The notes under the pieces are model-generated. The model did no database searches, was not told the DNA's origin, and was given only the letters and a program-made list of their open reading frames with translations. A DNA stretch of 15,497 nucleotides from an uncultured archaeon (GTDB lineage Archaea > Iainarchaeota > Iainarchaeia > Iainarchaeales > 0-14-0-20-30-16), in assembly GCA_964480435.1 (NCBI GenBank), contig CAYZSS010000020.1, positions 1 through 15,497 on the forward strand. Direction: 5' to 3'. Shown piece by piece: positions 4,535 through 15,497 of this stretch (position 1 is its first letter; each line of letters starts with the position of its first letter). The translations under genes and the position numbers were made by a program.

Positions 4535-4635
4535 AAAAACCACTTTTTATACCCAAGAAGTCAATTTTGTTTTTTAAAATTGCTTTGTTGACAAGCAAGT
4601 GCATAAATATAATAAAGTTAAGAGAAAGAAAACTC

Positions 4636-5058: not shown

Positions 5059-5165
5059 AATATCACCTTATATACTGGAAATAAGTAATTTTTCTAAAAA
5101 AGAAAAATTCTTAAGTCCCTGAAACTTTTTTGCTTCATGCAAAAAAGTTTTCTTGGATAATATCC
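5059..5165 (-). repeat. copy C of the recurring intergenic hairpin element (rpl39e-rpl31e spacer)
   Basis: Sense strand: TGA-GGATATTATC-CAAGAAAACTTTTTTGC-ATGAA-GCAAAAAAGTTTCAGGGACTTAAGAA...TATAAG-GTGATATTATG. There is a 12-bp stem (5122-5133 / 5139-5150) and a second 9-bp A/T stem (5087-5095 / 5101-5109). The core 5108-5155 matches copy B nearly base for base. A degenerate copy (GGATATTATC) of the rpl31e SD-start (GTGATATTATG) lies at the upstream edge. Confidence 0.65.
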
Positions 5166-5986: not shown

Positions 5987-7663
5987 ATGGCTGAATTAAA
6001 ACACAGTTTTAAAGCAGATCATTTTGGTTCTCATTTTAAAGATTTACATGAACAAAGCGGTACAGCCCATAAAATCCTTTTGGAAAAAGAGGGTATGCCC
6101 CACAGCATAGAAAACATCGTTCGTTTTTATGCCGAAAAAAGACCAAAGATGTTTGAGTATTATATCAGGCAAATGGCCACAAAAAAAGAAATAAAGTCAT
6201 TGGCAAACCTAATTGTATTTTTTAGAGGTGGAAATGAGGAACATAAGAAAATTTCCTTAGAAATATTTAAAATTGTTGCAAGACATAACAGAGAAATAGC
6301 AGAAGAGCTAATTAAAGAAATCAACGGTATTAATCAGGGACTATCTAAACCCACAAGCCCTAAGCCTTCTAAAGCGCCTGAAGAACCAAAAAAAGGAACT
6401 ACCCCACACCCTGTGGGGCCTCTCAAAGCAGATAAGGGCAGACCAGACAAGGAAACTATTAAACCCGTGGCAGAGATAAAGGCACCTGAAAGACCAAAGC
6501 CAAAATCAGGCCCAGAAAGAAATAAAAGAAAGGCGGAAATAAAAACGACTATAATTGAGATACACAGAAGATATGGATTAACCCCCTTTAACACATTAGA
6601 CAGAGCAGTATCCATTTTAGAACAAATAGAATACAACACAGGTGGAAAAATCGATTTAGAAAAACTGACCATCAGAGATGTAACTACAGGATTACAATTT
6701 TTAATTATGAGAAATGAGGAACATATTTTAGATATAGCAGGAAAAACAAAAGTAAACGACGTATCATACACCCTAGGCAACATATACAATCAGAAAGGAA
6801 ACCAAAGAAAATATGTTTGCTGTTATACTACAAAAAATGGCGAAACAAAAATCACTATTTATTATAAAAGTGGATCTTCAGACAATTGGCGCCTTCTCCC
6901 TTTAACAGGTGATGCTGATTCACCAGGGCACTTCTACAAATCCGAAGCCGGCGAAGAATTTATTAATGCTCCTTGGCAGATTCAAAGAATACTTGACTCT
7001 AAACCATCCATATCAGTGGAAGATGATGTTTCTGAAGAATTTACTTTACTTTCCCCTGAACAAGATAAAATTTGGTCAAAAGGAGGGGTAAAATCAAGAA
7101 AAATCGCAGGAAACAGAGAGAAATTAAAAATTGATACATCAATTAAATTCCCTGGTTGGAATACTTTAGATATAACCAGACAAGAAAACCTCCCTGATTT
7201 TTCAAAGGTAGTAGCAGTATGGCCAGCACAATCTGAATTATACGGCACTGTAAAGAAGGTTAGTATCCTTAGTAAGAGTGGGTCTTATACTTGGACATTT
7301 AGTTCCTGCGCAGAAGGAGTATTCTTTTCAGGAATAGAGGTCACAAACGGAGATATTTCAAAACATGGGTTACCACAAATACCTGCCATCCACGACCCAA
7401 AAGGATTACATTACTTACTAATAACACAACCCAGAGAATACCAAGGCCAGTTATTTAGAAGACTAATAAGAGCAGAAGCAAAATATAGAAAACAAGGAAA
7501 AAGTGAAGCCGCGGACAGAATTAAAAAAATATTAGCAGTGTATGGCAGCAATGTAGATCCCAAAGACATCAAATTCGGGTATGAGAATGTAATGAAAATA
7601 TTGTTAATGCACCCTTTTATCAAAGCAATTCAAGAGCCAATAAGAAAAATTACGGGCCATTAA
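5987..7663 (+). CDS. 558-aa hypothetical protein (ORFan; helical N-domain, P/K-rich linker, ~370-aa C-terminal domain)
   Basis: This is the longest ORF in the window and is uninterrupted. Only short, low-complexity shadow ORFs overlap it. I recognise no catalytic or family motif, no signal peptide and no TM segment. Residues ~120-185 form a Pro/Lys-rich linker (SKPTSPKPSKAPEEPKKGTTPHP...ERPKPKSGPERNKRK). Confidence 0.75.
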   Translation: MAELKHSFKADHFGSHFKDLHEQSGTAHKILLEKEGMPHSIENIVRFYAEKRPKMFEYYIRQMATKKEIKSLANLIVFFRGGNEEHKKISLEIFKIVARHNREIAEELIKEINGINQGLSKPTSPKPSKAPEEPKKGTTPHPVGPLKADKGRPDKETIKPVAEIKAPERPKPKSGPERNKRKAEIKTTIIEIHRRYGLTPFNTLDRAVSILEQIEYNTGGKIDLEKLTIRDVTTGLQFLIMRNEEHILDIAGKTKVNDVSYTLGNIYNQKGNQRKYVCCYTTKNGETKITIYYKSGSSDNWRLLPLTGDADSPGHFYKSEAGEEFINAPWQIQRILDSKPSISVEDDVSEEFTLLSPEQDKIWSKGGVKSRKIAGNREKLKIDTSIKFPGWNTLDITRQENLPDFSKVVAVWPAQSELYGTVKKVSILSKSGSYTWTFSSCAEGVFFSGIEVTNGDISKHGLPQIPAIHDPKGLHYLLITQPREYQGQLFRRLIRAEAKYRKQGKSEAADRIKKILAVYGSNVDPKDIKFGYENVMKILLMHPFIKAIQEPIRKITGH

Positions 7664-9699: not shown

Positions 9700-10061
9700 T
9701 ATTCTTCACTCTCTTTTTTCTTTTCTTTTTTTGGCTTCTTTTTTGGTTTTTCTACTTCTACTGCTTCGCCTTTTTCTTCTTCTAATACTAATTGATCAAT
9801 TATTTTTTCAGTTAGTTTTGTGCTTTTCCCTACAGTACTCTTTAGTGTCTTACCCATTCTTGTTTCTGCTTCATAAGCTCCACCGCTAAATTTCTTTCCA
9901 CAGTATTCACAATCAAAAACACCTGATGCCAATCTGCTAACTTTTTTCATTCCGCAGTATGGGCAAACTTGTTTTTTAAATTTGTAAGTTTCTGCCACCA
10001 CATCATATTTTCTTCTAACTTTTCTACCATATCTTGATCCAAATCCACTTGATAATGCCAT
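9699..10061 (-). CDS. rpl37ae: 50S ribosomal protein L37Ae (eL43) with a K/E-rich C-terminal extension
   Basis: GSRYGRKVRRKYDVV...CPYCGMKKVSRLASGVFDCEYCGKKFSGGAY is the L37Ae zinc ribbon. GGTGAT SD 3 nt upstream of the ATG. The last ~35 aa form a low-complexity tail (EEEKGEAVEVEKPKKKPKKEKKKESEE). Confidence 0.9.
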   Translation of the reverse strand: MALSSGFGSRYGRKVRRKYDVVAETYKFKKQVCPYCGMKKVSRLASGVFDCEYCGKKFSGGAYEAETRMGKTLKSTVGKSTKLTEKIIDQLVLEEEKGEAVEVEKPKKKPKKEKKKESEE

Positions 10062-10140
10062 AATATCACCCTATATTTAATGGCCCTGTTTGATGTTTTT
10101 GCGATTTGAGCACAAACTCAAACTTGGCCATAATATCACC
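10057..10140 (-). repeat. copy A of the recurring intergenic hairpin element, flanked by a perfect 14-nt duplication of the rpl37ae SD+ATG
   Basis: gccataatatcacc occurs at 10057-10070 and 10127-10140. The 56-nt core (10071-10126) has hairpins at 10095-10117 and 10105-10122. A 21-codon mini-ORF (10066-10131) ends with the TGA inside the downstream GGTGAT. Confidence 0.7.
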
Positions 10141-10142
10141 AC

Positions 10143-13831: not shown

Positions 13832-14017
13832 TTAACTAGTTGATGCTGGAACTGCAGCCACCGGTTGAGCAGCTGCCACCTTAGTAGTTCCTTTAAACAT
13901 TGGTTTTACTACTGCGATAAGAACAACAGCAGCAATTGCTAGAATTAGGACCATATAAAGGGTATTCCACTCAGACTGCCCTTTCTTTTCTGTTAGGAAT
14001 ACCTTTATATCTCTCAT
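13832..14017 (-). CDS. small class-III-signal-peptide (archaeal type IV pilin-like) protein
   Basis: 61 aa: MRDIKVFLTEKKG|QSEWNTLYMVLILAIAAVVLIAVV... It has a short charged leader, a KG/Q prepilin-peptidase-type site and then an 18-residue hydrophobic helix. It resembles the QxSxExxxL class III signal family. AGGTGAT SD 5 nt upstream of the ATG. Confidence 0.6.
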   Translation of the reverse strand: MRDIKVFLTEKKGQSEWNTLYMVLILAIAAVVLIAVVKPMFKGTTKVAAAQPVAAVPASTS

Positions 14018-14094
14018 TCAAATCACCTTTTGATTTTAATGCGCCTGAAACTTTTTGCCTTTTTAGCAAAAAGCTTTCTTGTCATTCAAATCAC
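14014..14094 (-). repeat. copy B of the recurring intergenic hairpin element, flanked by a perfect 13-nt duplication of the pilin SD+ATG
   Basis: tcattcaaatcac occurs at 14014-14026 and 14082-14094. The 55-nt core (14027-14081) has an 8-bp hairpin, CTTTTTGC/GCAAAAAG (14051-14073). A 20-codon mini-ORF (14023-14085) ends with the TGA of the downstream AGGTGA. Confidence 0.7.
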
Positions 14095-14598
14095 TTACTT
14101 CTTAGGACCTATAGTAACAAAACACATTGTATCTTCAGCGCCTAATTGAGGGCTGCATTTACTAAAAACATCATAGGCCGCAGGTATAGTACCATCAGTA
14201 CTACAGAAAGCATACAAAGTTACTTCTTTATCACTTTTTCCACTATAAATTATACCATCAGTCGCCGAAAAAGAGGATAAAGTAGATGCAGCAGGTTCAC
14301 AAAATATAATCTGTGATTCATCTAAACCTACCCCTGCTTGAGTAATCTGTTGTGATACAATTGCATTATTTTTTTCTGTAAAAGTAACATTTTTAGATTG
14401 TGAGGTATACGGACTACTATAAGCAGTTTTTACCAAATCTTTTACTGCGGAATCTGGTTTACTTGATGGATTGAAGTTAATCATACCCATAATATTCAGT
14501 AGTAACATTAATATTGCCAAAGATACAATTGCAGCAATTAGAATTTTAAATACACTAAAAGCCTGCCCCTTCTGACTTTTAATTTTTAAGTTTATCAT
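14095..14598 (-). CDS. type IV pilin-like protein (class III signal peptide, Cys-containing globular domain)
   Basis: MINLKIKSQKG|QAFSVFKILIAAIVSLAILMLLLNIMGMI has a charged leader, a KG/Q site and a hydrophobic helix. A ~125-aa S/T-rich domain with 4 Cys follows. The longest ORF starts at 14613, but GGAGGT (14611-14606) lies 7 nt upstream of ATG 14598, which gives the canonical short leader. Confidence 0.6.
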   Translation of the reverse strand: MINLKIKSQKGQAFSVFKILIAAIVSLAILMLLLNIMGMINFNPSSKPDSAVKDLVKTAYSSPYTSQSKNVTFTEKNNAIVSQQITQAGVGLDESQIIFCEPAASTLSSFSATDGIIYSGKSDKEVTLYAFCSTDGTIPAAYDVFSKCSPQLGAEDTMCFVTIGPKK

Positions 14599-15442: not shown

Positions 15443-15497
15443 GGGAAGGTAGCTCAGTCCGGAAGAGCAATAGGCTGAAGACCTATGTGTCGAGGGT
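15443..15497 (+). tRNA. tRNA-Phe (anticodon GAA), truncated by the window edge
   Basis: Manual cloverleaf: acceptor GGGAAGG, TA, D-stem GCTC/GAGC with loop AGTCCGGAA, anticodon stem ATAGG/CCTAT, loop CTGAAGA (U33, GAA at 34-36), variable GTGTC, then the start of the T-stem GAGGG. The 3' half lies outside the window. Confidence 0.85.

Follow-up and report, generated by a model that had tools for sequence, protein, structure and literature searches.

A hairpin element at the start codon of a small gene in an AT-rich DPANN archaeon: probable insertion of a tolerated mobile repeat

The stretch of DNA analyzed here (15,497 nt; hereafter the window) comes from an archaeon, is rich in AT (31% GC) and carries on its minus strand a conserved proteasome/exosome/ribosomal-protein superoperon, with genes for PsmA, SBDS, Rrp4, Rrp41, Rrp42, L37Ae, RpoP, Pcc1, prefoldin, S19e, L39e, L31e, eIF6 and FtsY. 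Contigs identical or near-identical to the window are present in the ENA, JGI and Logan assemblies, and among named relatives the closest are MAGs that carry the label Candidatus Iainarchaeum or Diapherotrites. The locus of interest lies between two minus-strand genes. The upstream gene (14095..14598; stop codon TAA at 14095-14097) encodes a protein of 167 aa, a length also found on public contigs, and homologues with 45-50% identity occur in an unchanged gene context. The downstream gene (13832..14017; ATG at 14017-14015) encodes 61 aa with a short hydrophobic pilin-like N terminus; orthologues of 60-63 aa follow the pilin gene directly in all relatives. Both genes had been described as pilin-like. 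This label agrees with our reading of an N-terminal KGQ-plus-hydrophobic motif but receives no confirmation from Pfam or NCBIfam, a search of which placed the upstream 167-aa protein in no family.

Read on the minus strand, the junction between the two genes is TAA-GTGATTTGAATGA-CAAGAAAGCTTTTTGCTAAAAAGGCAAAAAGTTTCAGGCGCATTAAAATCAAAAG-GTGATTTGAATGA-GAGAT. The 13-mer GTGATTTGAATGA, consisting of a Shine-Dalgarno (SD) sequence, a spacer, an ATG and one further A, matches the window perfectly at two places and no others, 14014-14026 and 14082-14094; this is the predicted duplication, with a period of 68 nt and 55 nt between the repeats. The left-hand repeat (14082..14094, minus strand; ATG at 14085-14083) is the native start region, directly 3' of the TAA, and its exact duplicate on the right (14014..14026, minus strand) is the start region of the 61-aa gene. 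The original prediction treated the 55 nt between them as one core. The period and the 13-nt flanks stand, whereas the core is better divided into a 38-nt hairpin core and a 17-nt anti-start/SD module. The former, CAAG-AAAGCTTTTTGC-TAAAAAG-GCAAAAAGTTT-CAGG (14044..14081, minus strand), was delimited by folding, family alignment, covariation and a profile of foreign copies. The latter, CGCATTAAAATCAAAAG (14027..14043, minus strand), comprises CATTAAAATCA and an A-rich run ending in AG, which completes the SD sequence AGGTGA. The segment CATTAAAATCA, to be compared with CATTCAAATCA (the reverse complement of the start region), is an inverted near-copy (10/11) of the start region TGATTTGAATG. The hairpin of this unit, which we call copy B, folds with -19.4 kcal/mol (z = -2.9), and in the MFE structure the left-hand start region is paired with 14029-14039 while the right-hand one is free. 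From the left-hand ATG (14085) an open reading frame of 20 codons, MTRKLFAKKAKSFRRIKIKR, runs to a TGA at 14023 (14023..14085, minus strand), so that its stop codon forms part of the real SD (AGGTGA), 5 nt ahead of the actual start codon; the mini-ORF is thus as predicted. An exact 13-mer repeated within 30-150 nt is found at least once in ~20% of dinucleotide shuffles of the window. Such a repeat is not very rare at 31% GC, and the significance of the unit is therefore taken from comparative data.

Two further units are present in the window. Copy A, at the Rrp42|L37Ae junction (10062..10142, minus strand), has the parallel layout that had been proposed for it, with GGTGATATTATGGC occurring twice (10127-10140 and 10057-10070; period 70), a core at 10085-10126 and a mini-ORF of 21 codons. 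Copy C, at the L39e|L31e junction (5059..5165, minus strand), has a core at 5118-5155, a second hairpin and a degenerate upstream copy of the start region (GGATATTATC). The similarity noted previously between copy B and this region is real (73% over 49 nt, at 5107-5155; repeat family D12), and the core common to B and C can be written CAAGAAARCTTTTT(T)GC...GCAAAAA(A)GTTTCAGG. A profile built from foreign copies only detected copy B (14034-14084; E=6e-7), copy C (3e-5) and copy A (3e-4) and no other site in the window. A search of the whole window with Rfam 15 (cmscan, E<=10) produced no match at 14014-14094, 10062-10142 or 5059-5165. Just after the core of copy A, in the region of 10079, the window and one other contig (L001, 13602) read CAGGGCCAT and a third (L002, 9568) reads CAGGACCAT; this single-base polymorphism falls on the base pairing with the nucleotide after ATGG.

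The distribution of the family was examined in a set of loci that included 80 GTDB loci, from Iainarchaeia to Thermoplasmata, fetched with Rrp41. A regex-plus-RNAfold scan of the GTDB loci gave 254 hits, essentially all of them noise in GC-rich genomes, and nhmmer profiles took its place. With these profiles, copies were found only in the window lineage, L007, L008, a second lineage (lineage 2; L131, L210 and L229-232), L217 and L233, and none at the other GTDB loci, in a sample whose host sequences are all metagenome contigs and which is biased to one conserved operon region. Scanning of viral contigs with the pattern CAAGAAARCN{16,24}GTTTCAGG returned at least 120 matches, which are chance ones. 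A strict pattern (ATGGYCAAG...CAGG..CCATWAAAW) applied to metagenomes returned 19 loci, of which 3 were true members (L210, L217 and L222, the last being L007), which means either that the family is rare or that its variability defeats exact patterns. Lineage 2, whose Rrp42 is 80% identical to that of the window, has copies before an MBL-fold gene, S19e, L31e, Rrp4 and the small gene after pilin, the last at the same junction as copy B. At L39e|L31e there are two identical tandem units in L210 (141-300, minus strand) and one in L229 (8159-8253) and L230 (6343-6437), which, as read from the sequences, is a VNTR-like variation in copy number. Two different cores stand in tandem before SBDS in L007, and in L217 a copy with an exact 20-nt flanking repeat, TAAAAAGGTGATTTTATGGT, lies in the leader of an HTH gene. 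The copy at Rrp42|L37Ae in L233 (1068-1142) has a B-type core that is flipped relative to the gene, whereas its CCAT-A-rich-SD module keeps the orientation of the gene; the ATG of the upstream start-region copy reads CTG. This core may invert between its flanking inverted segments. Copies away from start codons are represented by copy F in L007, which is intergenic, and one in L008. The spacer between the 60-aa gene and PsmA in L007 (1530-1770) is expanded to 354 nt and contains a two-hairpin family copy. It also contains further direct repeats (CCCTTTTTTGGCA twice, 70 nt apart, and AAAAGGCTAGA twice, 142 nt apart), a pattern that suggests nested insertions at a non-start site.

Comparison of orthologous pilin loci had been proposed as a check on the unit. 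In L005 (Ca. Iainarchaeum sp. GCA_028710695.1) and in L007, the pilin|small-gene junction is TAAGTGATCAAAAATG, and the window has a 68-nt insert at this point; copy B is an insertion. The site of copy A is empty in L005, L229 and L234; at the junction of copy C, lineage 2 has a unit and L005 has none. Junctions in L005 are tight (11 nt for Rrp42|L37Ae and 27 nt for L39e|L31e), and both of these are filled in the window. The L005 and L007 sites indicate that tight, coupled junctions are ancestral, and all three units of the window are therefore additions. Filled and empty sites can also be compared between L005 and L229, which share 97.7% amino-acid identity in Rrp42 and 87.6% nucleotide identity over 9.8 kb: the five filled sites of L229 (MBL, S19e, L31e, the pilin junction and Rrp4) are all empty in L005. 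Similarly, Rrp42|L37Ae is filled in L233 and empty in its relative L234. The preference of the original prediction for a generic or mobile element over an autoregulatory leader of ribosomal-protein genes is upheld by these data, as the same core precedes unrelated genes and the three junctions are empty in relatives. The element occurs before non-ribosomal genes and is absent before L37Ae and L31e in close relatives. A different insert, of 74 nt with a small hairpin, is found at the pilin|60-aa junction of L008 (1962-2035; the same in L009, 866-939). Its hairpin is followed by a second SD-ATG (AAGTGATATTATGA), and this directly by AAGACCAAAGAAGTGATTTAAATG. This insert resembles the 3' module of the family without the core and is possibly a copy that has lost its hairpin.

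A typical copy consists of the start region (SD-spacer-ATG plus 1-6 nt), the core, the anti-start segment, the A-rich/SD module and the start region again. Cores are ~38-42 nt long across the family (38 nt in copy B), and their stem, of 10-13 bp, has the invariant CAAG and CAGG at its foot. In six B-type cores, aligned alone and with the structure supplied by hand, 98.6% of base-pair cells are standard pairs, as against 32-59% in slid controls, and compensatory double changes are present in 5 of 12 pairs. The hairpin is therefore under constraint. A MAFFT alignment that mixed the subtypes put the arms out of register, and RNAalifold therefore predicted no structure from it. Two alternative pairings had been proposed for the 5' arm, with a nearby and a distal partner. 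Covariation in the six B-type cores backs the distal pairing only, the loops differ freely, and the family comparison gave no conserved sign of a two-state switch.

The segment 3' of CAGG, of CCAT or GCAT type, is complementary to the start codon and its surroundings on the 5' side of the core, N'CCAT pairing with ATGGN. Next come an A-rich run ending in AAG or TAG and then GTGAT, which is the SD. This 3' module is alike in nearly all copies and has the form CCAT/CCAG-(T)AAAA(T)A(T)AAG-GTGAT (CCAT/CCAG-AAAATATAAG-GTGAT). The insertion point of the Rrp4 copy is 6 nt further into the gene, and its post-core segment TTCTTTCA is complementary to TGAAAGAG. This copy, together with the base after ATGG, suggests that the inverted post-core segment tracks the target. 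A locus-specific test of the post-CAGG segment as an inverted copy gave 7.7 for the own start region and 6.5 for those of other loci, start regions being similar to one another throughout.

In 10 of 10 start-site copies the frame that begins at the upstream ATG stays open across the core, compared with 8 of 20 other frames (Fisher p=0.0015), a count that overstates independence, since the copies are related and the core arms are compositionally poor in stop codons. Across these ten copies the mini-ORF ends 4-18 nt before the real ATG. The basic peptide that had been singled out in copy B is not maintained in the family as a whole, the core being read in three frames in different copies; the recurring traits are openness and end point only. 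Only the orthologous pair formed by copy B and the lineage 2 copy is alike, in having 20 codons that end at the TGA of the SD, despite two offsetting indels.

The most probable reading of these observations is that copy B arose by insertion of a small, non-autonomous, start-targeting mobile element that its hosts tolerate and whose range is a narrow group of AT-rich DPANN archaea allied to Candidatus Iainarchaeum (Diapherotrites). Such an element would insert 1-6 nt downstream of a start codon, within the region where translation begins, and SD-spacer-ATG(N) would then stand on both sides of it. The native upstream start would become a decoy, base-paired into the extended hairpin, and the downstream copy would drive the 61-aa gene. 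From the decoy ATG a short ORF would cross the hairpin and end within the real SD or shortly ahead of it. Ribosomes leaving the pilin gene might re-initiate at the decoy, melt the hairpin and terminate beside the real start; since the mini-ORF ends at the real SD, these ribosomes could re-initiate again and reach the real start. Coupling would thereby be preserved and the insertion would be nearly neutral. Alternatively, the 61-aa gene may be served by independent initiation at the regenerated SD. We infer that the mini-ORF is translated, that the two genes stay translationally coupled and that insertion is close to neutral. The element would be tolerated because insertion regenerates the start region, as a recent review proposes for mycobacterial interspersed repetitive units (MIRUs; PMC12548453), and host genes would survive because it rebuilds both the ribosome-binding site and the start codon. 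Decoy SD-ATG sequences and mini-ORFs of this kind will mislead gene callers and predictions of operons and leader RNAs in the carrier lineages.

The rival that survives best is that the hairpin is selected at all sites for a function at the mRNA level, for example as a barrier to 3'-5' decay, in cistron processing or as a protein-binding motif, mobility being secondary. The invariance of CAAG and CAGG, which form a 2x2 internal loop, and the maintenance of the stem by covariation are consistent with such a role, as is the sense orientation, relative to the host gene, of all start-site copies except that of L233. REP hairpins in bacterial operons act in this way (PMC3184786). Mobility would, however, equally need a conserved structure, the L233 copy is flipped relative to its gene and close relatives have the same junctions without the element. 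We consider primary selection for an mRNA function to be possible but rather unlikely.

How a start-targeting element of this kind moves is a separate question. Exact flanking repeats are 9, 10, 13 (copy B), 14 (copy A), 14 and 20 nt (L217) long, and those of 13-20 nt (copies A and B, L217) have the appearance of target-site duplications. A classic MITE, mobilized by a DDE transposase or a casposase-like integrase that makes a long staggered cut, would leave a target-site duplication of 13-14 bp; this accords with the exact repeats of copies A, B and L217 and the clean empty sites, and casposons produce duplications of roughly 14-15 bp. Several features nevertheless make a classic MITE improbable. 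Ordinary terminal inverted repeats that would match those of a parent insertion sequence were not found: the ends, CAAG... and ...AAAAG, have no inverted-repeat relation, and only the internal stem and ATGG/CCAT at the junction are inverted relative to one another. There is no fixed, family-specific duplication length, and observed lengths run from about 9 nt up to 20 nt or more. Often, too, the right-hand copy is unlike the native site and matches other loci instead. For example, the right-hand modules of the S19e and L31e copies in lineage 2, including the SD, are identical over 29 nt and differ from the native S19e SD of relatives, and the MBL gene, which natively has no SD, gained one with its lineage 2 copy. 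Neither a transposase or Cas1 gene nor a parent element was seen in the host-lineage sequence inspected (roughly 60 kb).

No single simple mechanism explains both the exact flanks and the donor-like right-hand modules. The variable repeat length and the donor-like modules therefore lead us to favour copying of the core and 3' module between start regions, guided by homology or microhomology, rather than the action of a classic transposase that duplicates a fixed length of target. The SD-spacer-ATGG sequence would guide such copying, with a variable return point, and the process might proceed via template switching, fold-back priming or short-tract gene conversion. In its full form, spread would need no dedicated transposase: the palindrome would drive fold-back priming or template switching, the microhomology being SD-spacer-ATGG as the only short sequence that recurs genome-wide, and each jump would leave a direct and a short inverted copy of the target. 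We put this forward as a speculative scheme, possible but doubtful in its entirety. Under it, each jump would install a portable anti-start/SD/start cassette, a 'translation-start parasite' kept harmless by its ribosome-relay mini-ORF. It is also possible that a transposase or casposase-like integrase acts and that conversion between copies follows later.

An explanation that we regard as highly unlikely is that copy B is a dedicated cis-regulatory RNA of the 61-aa gene, a two-hairpin leader or attenuator that exposes or hides the SD and uses the mini-ORF as a sensing leader peptide. The 5' arm, CTTTTT, has two A-runs, one nearby and one distal, with which it can pair, either start-region copy is a possible partner for CATTAAAATCA, and the orthologous lineage 2 copy keeps both the 20-codon ORF and an A-rich loop. 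However, the element also precedes the unrelated genes for L37Ae, L31e, S19e, SBDS, Rrp4, an MBL-fold hydrolase and an HTH protein, and the orthologous site in close relatives is without it; moreover, loops and peptide frames are not conserved, covariation backs one pairing only, and the copy sites have no Rfam match. Local tandem slippage, or a chance repeat beside a chance hairpin in AT-rich intergenic DNA, draws on the frequency of 13-mer repeats in shuffled sequence but has a negligible probability, as the material between the repeats is not locally duplicated and has homologues in the cores of other loci and genomes, and compensatory substitutions, empty sites and the foreign-copy profile all contradict it.

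As a mobile element of start regions, the family can be compared with several known systems. MIRUs are short repeats of 40-100 bp inside operons (PMC12548453; PMC3184786); they are described as mobile, inserting at start codons and having an internal ORF that is translationally coupled to the host gene (PMC12548453). The DPANN element is like them in its filled and empty sites between relatives, its tandem copy-number variation and its start-codon insertion with an ORF. The MIRU-like arrangement, in which an internal ORF ends close to the host start, is seen in 10 of 10 start-site copies and is a likeness of behaviour only and not homology, as the sequences are unrelated. The hosts are also unrelated, being GC-rich Actinobacteria for MIRUs and AT-rich archaea here. 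MIRU coupling relies on an overlapping stop and start (-4 nt), whereas the ORF of the DPANN element stops 4-18 nt upstream and SD and ATG are duplicated; MIRUs are reported to have tetranucleotide direct repeats, whereas the DPANN element has 13-20-nt duplications and an inverted copy. Neisseria REP2 elements carry an RBS and an ATG (PMC3184786). These elements and the upstream inverted-repeat elements of Borrelia resemble the DPANN family in being repeats immediately upstream of genes but are bacterial, larger and carry a promoter, and duplication of the host start region is not described for them. A further likeness is to REP/BIME, RPE and MJRE sequences, which are short imperfect palindromes in operon intergenic regions, co-transcribed and conserved in structure above sequence. 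MJRE (Methanocaldococcus) and RPE are small palindromic intergenic repeats, and we know of no REP/BIME, RPE or MJRE that targets start codons. REPs leave no target duplication and are linked to RAYT (IS200/IS605-like TnpA) transposases and to a conserved GTAG-type tetranucleotide at the hairpin foot; the invariant tetranucleotides of the DPANN element are CAAG and CAGG. Like MITEs, the element is short and non-coding, has direct-repeat flanks, is patchy between relatives and forms nested and tandem copies; unlike MITEs, it has no ordinary terminal inverted repeats, its repeat length varies, an inverted target copy is added and no parent insertion sequence was identified. Searches of the literature on archaeal MITEs at start codons and on casposon-derived non-autonomous elements yielded nothing that matched. 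To our knowledge, an insertion signature of direct plus inverted target copies has not been described for prokaryotic repeats, and small repeats in DPANN archaea are essentially undescribed.

On the preferred reading of a tolerated mobile element, the family would be a selfish hairpin able to colonize even the most conserved operons of a tiny genome, those with exosome, proteasome and ribosomal-protein genes. It would provide an archaeal parallel to mycobacterial MIRUs and natural test cases for termination-reinitiation coupling in archaea, and the direct and inverted target copies may point to a transposase-free route of mobilization.

Other classes of feature were considered for the hairpin and rejected. 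A BHB intron was dropped because there are no 3-nt bulges around a 4-bp helix, and a K-turn because there is no 3-nt bulge. CRISPR repeats were dropped on sequence grounds, the copies having no Rfam match. An archaeal oligo-T terminator was likewise dropped, as T-runs are present in B and C and absent from A-type cores. For integron attC sites, the RYYYAAC...GTTRRRY core sites are absent and the hosts are conserved housekeeping operon genes.

Some other features of the window were observed. In the L31e|eIF6 spacer (4562-4593, minus strand) there is a hairpin, GTCAACAAAGCAATTTTAAAAAACAAAATTGAC, whose arms are like those of B-type cores (nhmmer E=0.23) and which lacks CAAG and CAGG; it is possibly a decayed copy, or else a terminator-like hairpin native to the spacer. 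On the plus strand, 15443-15497 holds two-thirds of a tRNA gene, its 5' part (Rfam RF00005, 34 bits), which the end of the window cuts off; this truncation is the reason that ARAGORN did not report it. The plus strand also encodes, at 5987-7663, a 558-aa protein without a family match, at a position where L005 and L229 have a Kdo-like kinase gene. Within a 301-nt gap (1485-1785), a plus-strand frame of 58 codons at ~1600-1777, ending ...DIANILGISHITVYRKLREA* and without an ATG, GTG or TTG start, matches the resolvase-type helix-turn-helix family HTH_7 of Pfam (33.6 bits against a cut-off of 23.8 bits). This frame is perhaps a small HTH gene missed in annotation, or what is left of a recombinase, and L229 has a gap of like size between Trm56 and an M20 peptidase.
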